Assembly (NCBI GenBank): GCA_963708075.1
Contig: OY970194.1
Location: 2,464,001 to 2,528,000, forward strand
From: Sedimentisphaerales bacterium
GTDB taxonomy: Bacteria > Planctomycetota > Phycisphaerae > Sedimentisphaerales > Anaerobacaceae
DNA length: 64,000 nucleotides
Direction of reading: 5' to 3'
In this document: positions 1 to 47,249 of the stretch, piece by piece
Numbering within the stretch: the first letter of the stretch is position 1
Layout of the letters: each line of letters starts with the position of its first letter
Translations under genes and position numbers: made by a program
The notes under the pieces: model-generated
Database searches by the model: none
What the model was told of the DNA's origin: nothing
The model's input: the letters and a program-made list of their open reading frames with translations, nothing else

Positions 1-1232
1 TTGTCGAACTCGAATTGGATCCAGTTTGGCAACACGCCGGCGCTGATCCACATCTGCTTGCCGTCTATCGAGTGCTGATCGCTCGCATTCAGCCCGCCGC
101 CATTGACAGTGTTTTCCGGCCCCATGTCGGCCTGCGAGCTGGCCGCTGTAGCAGTCACGCCCTTGATCGGATAGGCAAACGGCTCGGCGGTGAAGGACCA
201 TATCTCGCCTTTGAAGACCGAGGCATCGGGCGTCGTATTGACCTCGTCGACTCGCCAGTAGTACGTCTTGCCATATTCGAGAAGATCGGCAGGCTCGAAC
301 GTGTTCGCGTCCCGGCCCGCGCCGGCCAGCACATTCAACGGACTGGCAACAGTTGCGGCGTCAACATCGTCTTTGCTGGTCCCAAGGTACACGTCATGTT
401 TCTGGCTGGGGAGTGCCGGTTTCCAGCTCAGGACAGGGTCGCGCGGGACATCCACAGCCCCGTCAGCCGGCCCCGGGTCCGAGGCGACAGGTTTTATTCC
501 AAGCAGGTACCTGATGGCATTGAGGAACATCTTCTTGCCGGCGTCATTGTAGTTGTAGGTCCCGTCGGAGACACCCGAGGTGCCGCCGCCCGAGAACAAC
601 AGTCGCTTGCCACCGGCTTTCTCGACTGAACCGGCGTAGAACTCCACTCCCGGCGCCCACTCGACAATCCAGGGCTGGCTGTTGTCCGCCCGCTTGGCGA
701 TCAACGTGCCATTACCAACGTCCGTGGTCGCTACGAAGGTGCAATTGGTCGTGAGGACGGCGACCTGGTTGTTCGCACCGAGCGACACGCCATCGAAAAT
801 AGGATGGGTGGGGAGCATCGCCTCCATCGTGGGCTGGGCAATGGCTGTGCTGCCTATGTTGATCCATTTCCAGCGAATGTTTTGGGCGATTTGGCCAACC
901 TGCAGCAGAATCGGGGTGGTAATGCCGTTCCACTGAGCAATCTCCGTGCCGTCGTCGTACTGTGCGCTGTCTGTATCGCGGCTGATGATGATGAGATCGG
1001 CCGCATTGAGGGCAGCGACTTTTGTCGCATCGAGTGTGCGGGCCTCCTTGTTACGGAAGGAAATATCGACCGTATACCCCTGTGCAATCAGCAGGTCGAT
1101 CCACGCCTGGTCGGCCGGAACGCCAGCGGCCGGCGTCTTGTTGTCCGACACCCAGACGATCGTGGCCCCGTCAGCCAGTGAGCCAACGCCAAGGGCCAAC
1201 GCCAATACCGAAAGAATCACTCTTCTGTACAT
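1..1232 (-). CDS. Secreted modular protein with discoidin (F5/8 type C)-like module, paralog of 1343-4672; 3' end outside window
   Basis: Hand translation from ATG 1232 (RBS AGAAGGAG): MYRRVILSVLALALGVGSLADG signal peptide ... YYWRVDEVN ... MGPENTVNG ... LPNWIQFEFD. Absent from the ORF track because it runs off the window. Confidence 0.85.
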   Translation of the reverse strand, partial: MYRRVILSVLALALGVGSLADGATIVWVSDNKTPAAGVPADQAWIDLLIAQGYTVDISFRNKEARTLDATKVAALNAADLIIISRDTDSAQYDDGTEIAQWNGITTPILLQVGQIAQNIRWKWINIGSTAIAQPTMEAMLPTHPIFDGVSLGANNQVAVLTTNCTFVATTDVGNGTLIAKRADNSQPWIVEWAPGVEFYAGSVEKAGGKRLLFSGGGTSGVSDGTYNYNDAGKKMFLNAIRYLLGIKPVASDPGPADGAVDVPRDPVLSWKPALPSQKHDVYLGTSKDDVDAATVASPLNVLAGAGRDANTFEPADLLEYGKTYYWRVDEVNTTPDASVFKGEIWSFTAEPFAYPIKGVTATAASSQADMGPENTVNGGGLNASDQHSIDGKQMWISAGVLPNWIQFEFD

Positions 1233-42668: not shown

Positions 42669-43586
42669 TCAGGCGACGCTGATGACGGCGAGGCTGGGGG
42701 TGGCCGGCTTGGGGGCGAGGGTCGCGACCTCGGCGAGGCGCTGAGCGTAGGCGAGGTCGGCGTCGCCGATGGTGTCGAGCACTGCTTCGTCGGCCGCTTC
42801 ATCGCGCAATCTTCGCAGGGCGGCGTCCACGAGCAGCAGCAAGGGATTGTAGAAGTACAACACCTGGACGCAATTCTGGACAAGGTGGACCCACAAATCG
42901 CATCGCTTGACGTGGGCGAGCTCGTGGAACAGCACGTCGCGCAGGTGACGAGAGCCGAGCGTGGGAGCAAGATTGCGAGGTACGACGATCACCGGGCGGA
43001 ACAGGCCGCACACGACCGGCTCAGTCCCATCCTCGGAGACTTTCAGTTGGACTCTGCCCCGGATACCCATGCGCTTGCGGCAGTAGGCGAGAATGTCCTT
43101 CATCAGAAGATTGGCCGTCGGCGAGCCTTCGATCCGCCGGCAGGCGGTCAGGGCACGATGCACCAGGATGCCGCTGACGGCAAAGACGCCGGCCAGCCAG
43201 AGCACGAACACTGCCCCCTGCCACGTCAGACTCAGTGGTCGCTCCCCTACCCCAGCCGCTGTGGTCTGGGATTGTCCGGTGATGGGCCGGGATAGGGGAG
43301 CGTTGCTGTGGCTTGCCGGCGCAGGGAATACCGGGTCTGCATAGGCAGCCGTGCCGGCTTGCCAATGGGTAGAAGGAGGATTCAGTGAGAATAACGGTAT
43401 CAACAGAAGATAAGCCAGGACCGACGCCACCAGCCAGTACCGCAGTGCCGCACGGACCCGCGTTCGCAGGAAGAACTCCACCGCCAACACAAAGGCGATC
43501 AACACCGTAGATGTCAGCAGCATCGGCAGGGCAAGTCCTACGAAGGCTTCACCCATCGTATTCACTTGTTCGATTATCCATTCCAT
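42669..43586 (-). CDS. BlaR1/MecR1-like M56 family metallopeptidase
   Basis: TM segments; P.VCGLFRP.I..P; HELAHVKRCD; FYNPL...DEAADE. Confidence 0.9.
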   Translation of the reverse strand: MEWIIEQVNTMGEAFVGLALPMLLTSTVLIAFVLAVEFFLRTRVRAALRYWLVASVLAYLLLIPLFSLNPPSTHWQAGTAAYADPVFPAPASHSNAPLSRPITGQSQTTAAGVGERPLSLTWQGAVFVLWLAGVFAVSGILVHRALTACRRIEGSPTANLLMKDILAYCRKRMGIRGRVQLKVSEDGTEPVVCGLFRPVIVVPRNLAPTLGSRHLRDVLFHELAHVKRCDLWVHLVQNCVQVLYFYNPLLLLVDAALRRLRDEAADEAVLDTIGDADLAYAQRLAEVATLAPKPATPSLAVISVA

Positions 43587-43785
43587 ATCGCGTCCTTTAC
43601 AGATTAAGACGCCCGAAACGGAAATCTATTACACGGAAAATGCGAGAATTCCGGCCCGGGCCTTATCGACAGGATGAATCGATTGGACGCGGATCGGGTT
43701 TTGTGTTTCAATATGCAGCGGCACCGGCCAGTTGAAACGTCGACCGGTTGTGATCGGTAATGATGACATCGTACGGAGACAACTT

Positions 43786-43884
43786 GTGTTAGGCCTGCTA
43801 CTGAGCCCAAGCGAAGTCGTGGTGCTCATGATCATCACGGCGGTCGTTGTGTACCTCGCCTCGCGCAAGAGTCGAACGAAGTAG
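43786..43884 (+). CDS. Putative 32-aa single-TM small protein
   Basis: GGAG then GTG start: MLGLLLSPSEVVVLMIITAVVVYLASRKSRTK; below the ORF-track cutoff. Confidence 0.4.
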   Translation: MLGLLLSPSEVVVLMIITAVVVYLASRKSRTK

Positions 43885-43913
43885 TCTTCCGCAGAAAGCG
43901 GGCCGCTGCAAGC

Positions 43914-44336
43914 CTACTGGCTCCAATCCCGTCTTGCTCTCTCGCTCTTGATGCGACTGCGTTGTCTTTTCTCCTCGAGCCGCCGCTCACGAGCGGACGT
44001 AGGGATCCTGGTCTTCCTGCGAATAGGCAGTGGCTTCAGAGCCTCCTGCAGAAGTTGCTGTAATCGCTCCACCGCCGCCTGGCGGTTGGCCTCCTGCGAG
44101 CGATGTCTCTGTGAGACGACGTGGAGAATCCCGTGTCGATCCATTCGGGTCGAGAGCTTGCTCGCGATGCGTTGCTTCTGCTCCTCGGACAAGCTCGGCG
44201 ATTGGCTCACGTCCAAGAGCACAGTGACTCGCGTGTTGAGCTTGTTGACGTTCTGCCCGCCGGGACCACCGCTCCGCGAGGTCTTGAATGTCAGCTCCTC
44301 TTCCGAGATGAACGTGTTTTCACCGATCTCAATCAT
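43914..44336 (-). CDS. arfB: Alternative ribosome rescue factor ArfB
   Basis: SRSGGPGGQNVNK, RSQEANR, basic tail RRLEEKRQRSRIKSER. Confidence 0.95.
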   Translation of the reverse strand: MIEIGENTFISEEELTFKTSRSGGPGGQNVNKLNTRVTVLLDVSQSPSLSEEQKQRIASKLSTRMDRHGILHVVSQRHRSQEANRQAAVERLQQLLQEALKPLPIRRKTRIPTSARERRLEEKRQRSRIKSERARRDWSQ

Positions 44337-44484
44337 GTCCGATCCGGGAACGCCTTTCGCCTCCATGATATCCCGTGTGCCGGCAAGCACAACCAAATAT
44401 GCACGCCCGTTCACTGCGTTCTCGGGGCGGTGCGGCCGGCCGTCGACGCCGGATTCGGGCCGCGTTGAGGGCCTTTACCGGCGA

Positions 44485-45768
44485 TCAATACGAGCGGGCC
44501 ACGTCATGGTTGTGGTATGCGACCCGCGGCCGAGCCCGCAGCACCACCCCGGCGCCCGCGGCCGGCGTTGGACGTTGGCTTTGTTTCGCACGGCCGTCCC
44601 CGTTCGTAGTGACGCCGCAAGGCGTTTGGCGGGAAGTGTCAAGTGCAGGTCCACCGCTTGACACTTGACACTTCAAACTTGAAACTCCCCCCTGAATTGG
44701 CTTTGTTTCGCACGATGGTTTGTCCTCGGCCGCCGGCCCAGCCTCACGTGACACTTCACACTTCAAACTTGAGACTTCCCCCGATTGGCTTTGTTTCGCA
44801 CGATCCGTTTCACAGGGTAGGCAGTGCCCACCTTCCACCGTCACAGATTGGCTTTGTTTCGTGCAGTCGCTTACGACAGTATGGGTGGCAGCGTCAAGCG
44901 AAGCTTGGCGATGGTCTTCCTGAGGCTCCTCGAATTGGCTTTGTTTCGCGTAATCAGTCTCGCAGGGTGGGCTGTGCCCACTTTCCACCGTCACAGATTG
45001 GCTTTGTTTCGCACAGTCGCTTACGACAGTATGGGTGGCAGCGTCAAGCGAAGCTTGGCGATGGTCTTTCTGAGGCGCCTCAAATTGGCTTTGTTTCGCA
45101 GAATCGCTCGTCCCCTCCCGGGTGGCATCGTCAAGCGCAGGCTTGCCGATGGCGTCAGGATGCAGCCCAACACCATCGGCAAGCTCCGCAGGCTGCGCTT
45201 GCCGCTGCCACCCGTCACTGCCTGACACTTGACACTTCACACTTGAAACTTCTTCCCCTGCTTTTCCCTCCCGCCGGACCTGTCGCAGTTCCTTCATCGT
45301 CCGGTACAGGCTGCTCTCGATCCGCCGCTCATGCATCGATAGCCGGTCGAGGGTCCTTGTCTCGGCGAAGTCGCGTGCGACCGCCCGCCCGAAGGCCAAC
45401 TCGGCCCTGGCCGATGGATCGCGGTTCTCACGGCAGCACTTGACCCAGCCGTCGCCACGATCCGCCTCAAGGAGATAGTCGAGGGCCTCATCCTGCATGC
45501 GTTCGGCCCGTTTGAGCCGCCACCAGAGACCGACGATGCGTTCCGCCATCGCCTCTTCCTCCGGCCCATCCGGAGCCAGCTTCCGGAGCATCCGGCTGCG
45601 GTGCAGCTCGAATTCCTGCGAATCTTCGTTCCTGAGCACGGCCTGGCGGGCCCACAGGCCATGCTTGACGGCGTTCTGCGCCACGACGGCCTTGCCCTCT
45701 GTGGTGCGGGGTCCGGTGGATTTGGCGGCGTTACGACGGTTGGCGGCGACTCGTGCCTGGCTACCCAT
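44485..45768 (-). CDS. Hypothetical protein with NRRNAAKSTGPRTTEGK...NAVKHGL N-terminal motif and repeat-derived C-terminal half
   Basis: RBS GGAGG before MGSQARVAANRRN; helical N-terminal domain of about 170 aa; C-terminus of KQSQ, VSSxKCxVS and HRQASLDAAT units. Confidence 0.75.
   Translation of the reverse strand: MGSQARVAANRRNAAKSTGPRTTEGKAVVAQNAVKHGLWARQAVLRNEDSQEFELHRSRMLRKLAPDGPEEEAMAERIVGLWWRLKRAERMQDEALDYLLEADRGDGWVKCCRENRDPSARAELAFGRAVARDFAETRTLDRLSMHERRIESSLYRTMKELRQVRREGKAGEEVSSVKCQVSGSDGWQRQAQPAELADGVGLHPDAIGKPALDDATREGTSDSAKQSQFEAPQKDHRQASLDAATHTVVSDCAKQSQSVTVESGHSPPCETDYAKQSQFEEPQEDHRQASLDAATHTVVSDCTKQSQSVTVEGGHCLPCETDRAKQSQSGEVSSLKCEVSREAGPAAEDKPSCETKPIQGGVSSLKCQVSSGGPALDTSRQTPCGVTTNGDGRAKQSQRPTPAAGAGVVLRARPRVAYHNHDVARSY
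44575..45100. repeat. Array of seven 16-bp direct repeats TTGGCTTTGTTTCGCA with 47-106 bp spacers
   Basis: Copies start at 44575, 44697, 44785, 44848, 44935, 44998 and 45085; five identical, two differ in the last 1-2 nt. Confidence 0.92.
45120..45213. repeat. REP doublet variant B (94 bp) inside ORF 44485-45768
   Basis: GGGTGGCATCGTCAAGCGCAGGCTTGCCGATGG...CCATCGGCAAGCTCCGCAGGCTGCGCTTGCCGCTGCCACCC. Confidence 0.85.
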
Positions 45769-45786
45769 GGGAAACCTCCGGAATCT

Positions 45787-45814
45787 ATGATTTTTGATGT
45801 TTGATTTTTGATTT
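45787..45814. repeat. Heptamer tandem repeat (TTGATTT)x4 just upstream of the repeat-array gene
   Basis: ATGATTT TTGATGT TTGATTT TTGATTT. Confidence 0.75.
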
Positions 45815-46187
45815 GAACATGGCCGCAGGCCTGCCGGGTGCGCCGGCGCCCGGTGAGACGTGGTCATCAGACCATATACTAAAGACGCTCCAGAGGGCGA
45901 AATGTTTCAGGAATGTTGGTTATATAGTGACATTATACGCAAGCCCTTGTGGCCCAGAGACTTACATCGCCTTATTTTTTGTGCCCAGGACAGAAGGCGG
46001 GCATGCGCCACCCTGCGACGGCGGCGACGAGTGCTCCGAGCGCACCCCTTGGCGCAGCGAATGGCGGTTCTCGTGGCGGTCGAGGGCATCAAAAGAAATG
46101 CATTCAACGCGATCAGAGCATCGCTCAGGGATTCGTCCCGAGTTTGAGTCTCTTGCCGCGGCTGGAGGACAACAACCGGCCGAGGAT

Positions 46188-46655
46188 TCAGTCTTCGTCC
46201 GGACGATAGGCGATGTCCGCGATCTCCGGCTGGGCCAGCGAGAGGTAATCCTCCATCCTCATGTGGATTGCCCGATCGTGGCTGCCCGCCTGGAAGACGA
46301 TGTGGTCGTCGCAGGTCAGGGCCTGATCCATGATGGTGCGGACATCATACAGCTTGCCAAATGGCGGCTCCGCCCCCTCCTCGCAGTCCGGGAACAGCTT
46401 GCGAGTCTCCTCTTCGCTCGCCATCGTGATCTCCTGAGTGCCGAGATAGTCTCGGAGCTTGTCGAAGACCACTTTGTGAGGCGCCGCGAGCACGCACATG
46501 ATGTAACCACGATCGGACTTGATGATCACGGGCTTTGCTACAAACTGGCCTCTCTCATGTTCCTCTGCCGCCACTATTTGGGCTGAATATGCCGGCTCAT
46601 GCTCGCTGACCGAGTAATCGGCGCGAGACTGGTCCAGATAGTCAAAGATCTTCAT
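46188..46655 (-). CDS. YbaK/ProX-family aminoacyl-tRNA deacylase
   Basis: H.PAYSAQ.VA, VAKPVIIK, FPDCEEGAEPPFG.LY, IVFQAGSH. Confidence 0.88.
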   Translation of the reverse strand: MKIFDYLDQSRADYSVSEHEPAYSAQIVAAEEHERGQFVAKPVIIKSDRGYIMCVLAAPHKVVFDKLRDYLGTQEITMASEEETRKLFPDCEEGAEPPFGKLYDVRTIMDQALTCDDHIVFQAGSHDRAIHMRMEDYLSLAQPEIADIAYRPDED

Positions 46656-47249
46656 GACTGTCTCCTTCAGGCCGAATCGGTATCCGTATTGCTGAGCCCA
46701 CATTACCCGGCGACCCAGCCGTGGGGAATCAGGATACGCCTCAATAGGCACGGGGGAATTTCCCATCATCATTCCTGTCGAGAATTTGCACAGGCGACGA
46801 TTTTTTGAGTCCGGCGACGAAATTTCCTTCGGCCCCACTTTGCAGGTTATCGGGGCTAAGTGGGGCAGACCATCGTACACAGGAGAACGCCCGCCACGTG
46901 AATCACTGTGGGCCGGGGCAGCTTGGGAAACGGGGGAAAATGGCTTCCCCGCGACAGCGATTTACCCACCCGATTGACGCGATTGCCCGTCGGCCGCGGG
47001 TCCCCAGAAAGGCTCAAGAGCCGTTGTCGCGCCTGCCGATTGGACATGTAGAACGATTAGAACGCAGCGTCAATGACATAAGGGGGTCCATTGACGAAGA
47101 CAAGCGTAGCAACTCATTGACATCTATATAGCCGATGGAACTTTCGCCCCTGGGCAGCGACTGGCGGGTATTTCAAACATATACCTAACTGGCATTGGGA
47201 ATATCCTCGCACAGGCTCCGCAGGGGCTTTTTCTTTGTTCCGATTGATT

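Follow-up and report, generated by a model that had tools for sequence, protein, structure and literature searches.

In phages P22 and P1, the packaging site pac lies inside or beside the small-terminase gene terS (gene 3 and pacA, respectively), and in plasmid iterons and the subterminal arrays of transposons, direct copies of a 15–20-bp site are found, at uneven spacing, beside the gene for the binding protein. In SPP1, with its small terminase gp1 and the sites pacL and pacR, pac overlaps the terS coding sequence (PMC6316719). In the neisserial intergenic mosaic elements (NIME), 50–150-bp RS elements of more than 100 families are set apart by 20-bp dRS3 repeats (PMC1797815). Here we describe a 16-base repeat found in a 64-kb stretch of the chromosome of a Sedimentisphaerales bacterium (contig OY970194.1, positions 2,464,001 to 2,528,000; hereafter the window, whose positions serve as coordinates throughout), within the 3' part of a gene of an uncharacterised family. 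The repeat is almost certainly a nucleotide-level signal and not a protein motif, with the constraint acting on its nucleotides. Across the loci that we compared, the motif (sense GCGAAACAAAGCCAAT) is located downstream of, and co-oriented with, this one gene family in several phyla. Neither SPP1 pac nor NIME matches the combination of a stand-alone, chromosomal, multi-phylum family, sites within its own open frame, and gene-less arrays. We found no description of the family or its arrays in the literature, although the search was narrow and is a thin basis for claiming that they are unpublished.

The repeat TTGGCTTTGTTTCG occurs seven times between positions 44575 and 45099, always inside the same minus-strand open reading frame (ORF; 44485–45867). 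A scan of the whole window with TTGGCTTTGTTTCGC, allowing up to two mismatches, places the copies, by their starts on the plus strand, at 44575, 44697, 44785, 44848, 44935, 44998 and 45085, with none on the other strand; shuffled sequence gives an expectation of 0.14, and none of 100 shuffles got to seven. The first 14 nt are identical in all seven copies, and the 44848 copy has one mismatch, at its last base. In gene order, copies 1 to 7 (minus strand; 45085–45099, 44998–45012, 44935–44949, 44848–44862, 44785–44799, 44697–44711 and 44575–44589) are read as AKQSQF, AKQSQS, AKQSQF, TKQSQS, AKQSQS, CETKPI and AKQSQR, the last being followed by a conserved tail, so that six copies use one frame and the 44697 copy another. 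From the lowest coordinate upwards, successive copies are spaced 122, 88, 63, 87, 63 and 87 nt; since 122 and 88 add up to 210, the KQSQ frame resumes after the single shifted copy. The spacers are less constant: a 150-nt unit made of an 87-nt and a 63-nt module, with a hairpin in each, is duplicated in tandem (44777–45076), and the duplicates (44777–44926 and 44927–45076) are 90% identical, while the motif copies inside them differ solely at the last base of the 44848 copy. An initial annotation, made from the sequence of the window, had described the invariant 14-nt core, the diverging spacers, the six (A/T)KQSQ copies and the CETKPI copy 88 and 122 nt from its neighbours, all of which is borne out; the interval that it gave, 44575–44800, does hold copies but only three of the seven, the array extending to 45099.

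The behavior of the motif in homologous loci carries the argument for a nucleotide-level signal. A phmmer search with the 189-residue N-terminal domain (N-domain) of the ORF product against 1.84 billion representatives returned 23,360 cluster representatives (clusters at 50% identity) at E ≤ 1e-3. In nearly all of 150 listed homologs the domain is N-terminal and the total length is mostly 200–450 residues; their tails carry AKQSQ/AKQTQ, CETKPI/CETNPI or RNKPN/NKANF/NEANS, a single nucleotide word read in each of its three frames. We checked 110 loci from other genomes on DNA, 30 from the same genus and 80 named loci from Sedimentisphaerales, Phycisphaerae, Pirellulales, Acidobacteriota, Proteobacteria, Verrucomicrobia, Actinomycetota and Ignavibacteriales. 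At the 80 named loci, GAAACAAA[GC]CCAA (at most one mismatch) was never found upstream of the gene and was antisense twice; 45 motifs lie within the ORF (25 in the ETKP frame, 14 in the KQSQ frame and 6 in the RNKAN frame), 57 are past the stop codon, spread over 22 loci, and 29 loci have no match at this threshold. The same-genus loci gave 33, 9 and 3 motifs in the ORF by frame, and 24 past the stop. At AT-rich Pirellulales loci, the gene ends right after the domain and the arrays are located in untranslated DNA with stops in every frame; at alphaproteobacterial and acidobacterial loci, AAAACGAAGCCAAT is found once, 540–780 nt after the start, near the 3' end of the gene. Since the motif occurs in all frames or past the stop across homologs, the constraint is on the nucleic acid. 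The initial annotation had proposed just this, a constraint on DNA or RNA and not on the peptide, and had named a tabulation of frames across homologs as the test; the pattern expected of a coding tandem repeat, a single frame with free synonymous variation, is not what we see, as three frames are used and copies are found in untranslated DNA.

The motif is also, genome-wide, a mostly non-coding repeat. In the 7.5-Mb genome that holds the window (G000), the sense form GAAACAAA(G/C)CCAA has 253 copies at no more than one mismatch, against none for a reversed control. These copies group into about 46 clusters, with a single orientation within every cluster: five single copies and 41 arrays of 2–10 copies, with a repeat-to-repeat spacing of 33–440 nt. 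The motif lacks palindromic symmetry and is strict in its orientation; the conserved block, AATTGGCTTTGTTTCGCA, has sharp edges and barely conserved flanks, and at every position the 12-nt AAACAAAGCCAA is unchanged in 246 or more of the 253 copies, a set itself picked at up to one mismatch. Nine arrays are inside an ORF, whereas about 31 have no gene and lie outside any long ORF, and only 7 of 29 gene-less arrays (those of three or more copies) have a stop-free sense frame. Elsewhere in the genus, the motif is present in all 23 further genomes (24 in total), in 3 to 692 copies; outside the genus it is at background level. A reading of the motif as a sigma-54 promoter was considered and dropped, since, judged by eye, it is GG-N9-GC and not GG-N10-GC.

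The gene itself is found at nine loci in G000, using the first 215 residues of the ORF as the query, some copies being about 90% and others about 50% identical, and at each of the nine an array is located directly 3' of the gene with the motif in sense orientation. A conserved leader of about 200 nt (45769–45980, minus strand, in the window) precedes the other gene-bearing copies and also, by blastn, 12 gene-less arrays; it contains TATAAT, heptads of the form (AATCAAA)n and, 7 nt ahead of the ATG, GGAGG. Because a scan for sigma-70-type promoters found none on the minus strand, and one weak site on the plus strand, we call this element a leader and not a promoter, although it may act as one. 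Within the genus, the motif has been multiplied into arrays; the gene has been lost from about 31 of them, and at least 12 of those retain the leader.

From the conserved ATG, the ORF encodes 427 residues (44485–45768, minus strand; the longest ORF starts at 45867), comprising the N-domain, an array-encoded linker and a conserved C-terminal peptide. At 95 loci, which are related, the gene frame continues past the domain for a median of 117 codons before a stop, the medians of the other frames being 31 and 36, and is the longest frame in 63; the distribution is bimodal, with 23 loci stopping within 40 codons. In six of seven gene-linked arrays the gene frame has no stops, against 3–9 in the other two sense frames. 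The peptides in which the long ORFs terminate recur, being ..RPRVAYHxHDxARSY here and ..GYxPIFRRRR or ..AVRRVA in relatives, and two relatives (L123 and L131) read their last motif in different frames and have the same ..AVRRVA ending. In 17 tail codons compared among seven paralogs, synonymous differences mostly outnumber non-synonymous ones, copies 5 and 39 differing by four synonymous and no non-synonymous changes. The tail belongs to a terminal module (44429–44566, minus strand) formed by the last ~27 codons (..RARPRVAYHNHDVARSY, stop at 44485–44487) and ~56 nt past the stop, which is present with gene-bearing copies only. Translation through the array to the conserved end appears to be selected, because the frame is open beyond chance, the C-terminal peptide is conserved, and the tail DNA accompanies only gene-bearing copies. 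The residues encoded by the motif itself, read as they are in any frame, are incidental; to this extent the earlier suggestion of an incidental peptide tail holds, but it does not extend to the rest of the tail.

The N-domain (about 175 residues and all-helical; 45244–45768, minus strand) matches nothing in Pfam, PHROG or NCBIfam, TerS models included, whether searched as its 189 residues or as the whole ORF; the ESM Atlas returned clusters named "hypothetical protein" only, and the best hit of a profile search of the PDB, to eL34, has an E of 0.047. The first 45 residues are nearly invariant across phyla (A9, N10, N13, A14, K16, S17, T18, G19, P20, T22, G25 and K26), and an N-terminal arm of the form ANRxNAxKSTGPRTxEGK...NAxKHGL can be delimited at residues 3–45 (45634–45762, minus strand). 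A scan of IMG/VR gave 23 loci, most of them matching residues 3–45 only. The viral proteins encoded in the position of terS align with the family profile over 43 columns that are exactly the arm (hhalign, 99.2%, E 2.8e-19; BLASTP, 2e-11). Moreover, one of seven viral proteins scores above the cut-off of Pfam Terminase_4 (L177, 26.1 bits vs. 24.7) and another below it (L180), and the gene directly downstream of the viral arm gene matches PHROG 2 (large terminase) in four of the five tested, with Pfam finding nothing on this downstream gene in six of six. The arm is, on these alignments, a module common to the family and to phage proteins in the small-terminase position. On the viral contigs L172 and L176–L186, the terS-position proteins have, after the arm, an invariant stretch rich in Cys, PC..(S/T)C...(Y/F)..C..V......PG..CLDK, that the cellular family does not have and that is possibly a zinc site.

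Giving it slightly less than even weight, we favor a reading in which the motif serves a one-gene cassette as a cis-element at the nucleotide level and is likely the pac-like DNA docking site of the cassette's own protein; this weight applies to the statement as a whole, from binding by the arm to the tethering of a docking peptide. The basic, invariant arm would bind the invariant motif, on DNA rather than on RNA, and the helical body would assemble into an oligomer nucleated by several motif copies. Through a linker of indifferent sequence, the open frame would keep the conserved C-terminal peptide, a predicted partner-docking tail, tethered to the N-domain. Marking DNA for packaging, obstructing packaging, or spreading the cassette are candidate outcomes of such a complex. 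As proposed here, the cassette would resemble a phage small terminase and its pac in that the recognition DNA overlaps the gene of its own binding protein, leaving the sites constrained as nucleotides in any frame. A second point of likeness is the arm, whose viral homologs occupy the terS position and include one that passes Terminase_4.

Several observations weigh against this docking-site reading. Homology to the viral proteins is confined to 43 residues; beyond the arm, the N-domain, modelled with AlphaFold2 (AF2; pLDDT 88) as an all-helical fold that contains two long hairpins, gives generic helical-hairpin or coiled-coil matches only. The best Foldseek E is 0.085, no row being returned at E ≤ 1e-3 for the whole N-domain against the PDB and BFVD, and the best Z of a wide VIA search is 8.5, over residues 66–189 only; the arm alone gave no Foldseek rows and a best VIA Z of 4.9, and no small-terminase structure is among the fold-search rows shown. 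The sequence AAACRAASCCAA is absent from five viral records with arm-bearing genes in the terS position, one of them a complete 40-kb genome, and the arm therefore does not always accompany the motif. A tblastn search with the family found no homolog in 50,697 phage or 72,556 plasmid records, and no large terminase was found in the G000 genome with the models phrog_2, PF03237 and PF03354. The missing viral motif, the negative collection searches and the missing large terminase, together with flanking genes that differ from locus to locus, also tell against a packaging role for the family here. The relatedness of the loci means that the frame statistics and their p-value overstate independence, and the comparison of non-synonymous with synonymous differences per site (pN and pS) in the tail covers only those 17 codons and seven paralogs, with pN close to pS in some pairs (5 vs. 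16 and 12 vs. 16). Finally, the strict co-orientation with the gene and the leader kept in gene-less arrays fit a role at the RNA level equally well.

The cassette also differs from a small terminase in several respects. Unlike a small-terminase gene, the gene in the window is chromosomal and stand-alone, flanked by arfB-like and ybaK-like genes, with no large terminase adjacent or detected; it likewise lacks the terminase neighbor of the viral arm-bearing genes, four of five of which, among those tested, precede terL, and no terminase match was found in 63 flanking ORFs from 32 loci. The body has no relationship to Terminase_4, and neither the N-domain nor the whole ORF matches a TerS family model (Terminase_4/P27 family, PHROG 83); the sites have been multiplied into arrays at dozens of loci, mostly gene-less, and no member of the family turned up in the phage and plasmid collections searched. 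For a terminase-like identity of the family, the structure searches offer no support and the arm homology offers partial support.

An RNA-level element is possible, although we hold it to be distinctly less probable. The arrays would be transcribed from the leader, and a single-stranded, A-rich GCGAAACAAAGCCAAU between hairpins would be a binding or processing site; the motif could bind the cassette protein or a host factor, as in many-site decoy RNAs, with translation through the array averting an early end of the transcript. Such a role would fit the placement of the motif on the sense strand of the gene and never upstream of it, the hairpin-rich spacers, the 12 gene-less arrays that retain the leader but not the terminal module, and a frame that is open whatever it encodes, as transcription–translation coupling would have it. 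The sense strand does give the more stable fold in 25 of 33 arrays; this asymmetry, however, is confounded by the G-richness of the sense strand and is reversed in all six gene-linked arrays. The Rfam 15 covariance models gave a best E of 0.17, far below gathering scores, and none even at E 0.1. Moreover, the sole identified relatives of the arm belong, by position and family, with DNA-packaging proteins, and most gene-less arrays have stops in every frame, so that translation cannot be needed there. A tRNA-like end suggested by GGTTCGAATCC in the terminal module of one paralog was discarded, as ARAGORN found no tRNA or tmRNA in 43500–46500 and the T-loop is absent from the other copies.

That the motif is a recombination site seems rather improbable. 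It would be the core at which short DNA modules insert, swap or duplicate, comparable to the role proposed for dRS3 in NIME or to that of attC in integron cassettes, and nucleotide identity would be kept because each event copies the motif. The arrays are indeed mosaic: 192 spacers of at least 25 nt fall into 131 families, 117 of them singletons, and a few module types are common to 7–16 arrays, among them (CCGCAAT)n, with 28 copies in 16 arrays, and the 87-nt hairpin unit of the window locus, with 14 copies in 7 arrays; among the 192, 27 turn up outside arrays too, as small dispersed hairpin repeats. The dominant variant of the motif is genome-specific, G000 having 204 copies with AAAGCC, 2 with ACGAAGCC and 11 with AAACCC, against none with AAAGCC and 13–15 with ACGAAGCC in G003 and G014; one array is split by a 1.3-kb insert, and NIME arrays have a mosaic architecture too (PMC1797815). 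Variants are, however, mixed within single arrays in G005 (contig C100), and no recombinase accompanies the cassette: the neighboring genes are heterogeneous and mutually unrelated across 32 loci, and the N-domain is small and all-helical. Moreover, a single motif is conserved near the 3' end of the gene in distant phyla that have no array, which points to a function other than array building. Neither the RNA-level nor the recombination alternative is exclusive of protein binding.

Two observations on the modules of G000 can be added. The hairpin of the 87-nt unit (core GGCAGCGTCAAGCGAAGCTTGGCGATGG) and a GTAGTGACGCCG..AAGGCGTT hairpin occur 6–19 times outside the arrays as dispersed repeats. 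The split array, that of a gene-bearing copy outside the window (G000:C1:4779032-4780337), has two motifs before the ~1.3-kb interruption and three motifs and the terminal module after it; the interruption may be an insertion into the array.

A true coding repeat, in which the protein needs AKQSQ-type peptide repeats and nucleotide identity reflects recent duplication, is hardly credible: six of the seven copies in the window and 37 of 46 in the nine G000 paralogs do share one frame, and spacings divisible by three are over-represented (100 of 207), but 26 of those 100 are one 87-nt unit, without which the split is 74:50:57, about 31 arrays are outside any long ORF, the motif is conserved across phyla at would-be synonymous positions, and homologs that read it in three frames or not at all already contradict the idea.

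Compared with repeat arrays described elsewhere, those in G000 are, like NIME, dispersed, with one short conserved repeat between many unrelated spacer families of variable length, and dynamic between relatives. Unlike dRS3, which has terminal inverted repeats, the motif is asymmetric and strictly oriented; and whereas NIME are described as intergenic and Neisseria-specific, the motif is tied to a multi-phylum gene family whose frame reads through it, nine arrays being in an ORF. Like plasmid iterons and transposon subterminal arrays, the cassette has several direct, unevenly spaced copies of a site next to the gene of its candidate binder; unlike them, it shows no Rep or transposase fold or family, and the gene-less arrays share no second element end. 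The arrays also resemble clustered regularly interspaced short palindromic repeats (CRISPR) in having short identical repeats and mostly unique spacers, with a leader ahead of them. CRISPR repeats, however, are ~23–50 nt with near-constant spacers, while the core here is ~18 nt and its spacing varies over the range given above; some spacers are shared modules, and arrays can be coding. No phage match was found by blastn for the one array tested of about 41 (871 nt, against the same 50,697 phage records), and cas genes were not searched for.

The whole cassette (44415–46187, minus strand; 1,773 nt) is located between an arfB-like gene (43914–44414; RF-1 domain, Pfam) and a ybaK-like gene (46188–46880; tRNA_edit domain, Pfam). 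In nine same-genus genomes these two genes are direct neighbors with no N-domain match between them; most of the spacers listed are ~85–100 nt long, that of G011 being ~250 nt and that of G006 ~430 nt. Since the site is empty in these relatives, the cassette in the window is, by this comparison, an insertion between the two genes. The ~250-nt spacer of G011 (L144) contains a stretch resembling the long inverted repeat at window positions 45175–45215, which may be a remnant of the cassette or an independent small hairpin element, and the ~430-nt spacer of G006 (L148), bordered by inverted copies of a ~20-nt word (GTACCGCATTTC... / ...GAAATGCGGTAC), looks like a different small inverted-repeat element at the same intergenic site. 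The ~207 nt between the ybaK-like stop and the leader (45981–46187) are within the insertion and match neither the spacer of the relatives nor the other cassette copies. In three alphaproteobacterial loci (L088, L090 and L106), the gene is found upstream of the same enolase-superfamily (MR_MLE) gene, and in that lineage it looks vertically inherited at one site, and not mobile.

Within the cassette, the paralogs all share the Met of MGSQARVAANRRN (window position 45768), with GGAGG before it. A long nested inverted repeat, made of two inverted pairs, is located between the N-domain and the first motif (45119–45214). Blocks of a 7-nt repeat of the CACTTGA type are found at 44652–44686 and 44742–44776 (together spanning 44652–44776), with a third at 45216–45250; besides these runs, AATCAAA-type heptads are found in the leader (45775–45815) and (CCGCAAT)n in other arrays. 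With a period of 7 nt, such runs cannot be coding periodicity.

A very large family with no name, Pfam model or known function thus gains a conserved partner, a 13–16-nt nucleic-acid motif from which it has not been parted in Planctomycetota, Acidobacteriota, Proteobacteria and other phyla. The protein and the site form a directly testable pair that is linked to phage DNA-packaging proteins, and the pair accounts for dozens of CRISPR-looking arrays in these genomes. At its fullest, and we regard this extension as doubtful, the cassette would be a minimal one present in many phyla, an orphan protein with the DNA-recognition arm of a phage small terminase and docking sites in the 3' part of its own gene; the sites would multiply into promoter-driven, gene-less arrays that either tag host DNA to be packaged by passing phages or phage-like particles or sabotage such packaging, and the array would double as an ever-changing, disordered, in-frame linker carrying a partner-docking C-terminal peptide. 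Gene callers will go on predicting long repeat proteins at such loci, which matters to annotators. The locus is a clear natural case of DNA that is both a cis-signal and an open reading frame, one in which the targets of selection are the signal's own nucleotides, an open frame and the distal peptide, and not the residues that the signal encodes.

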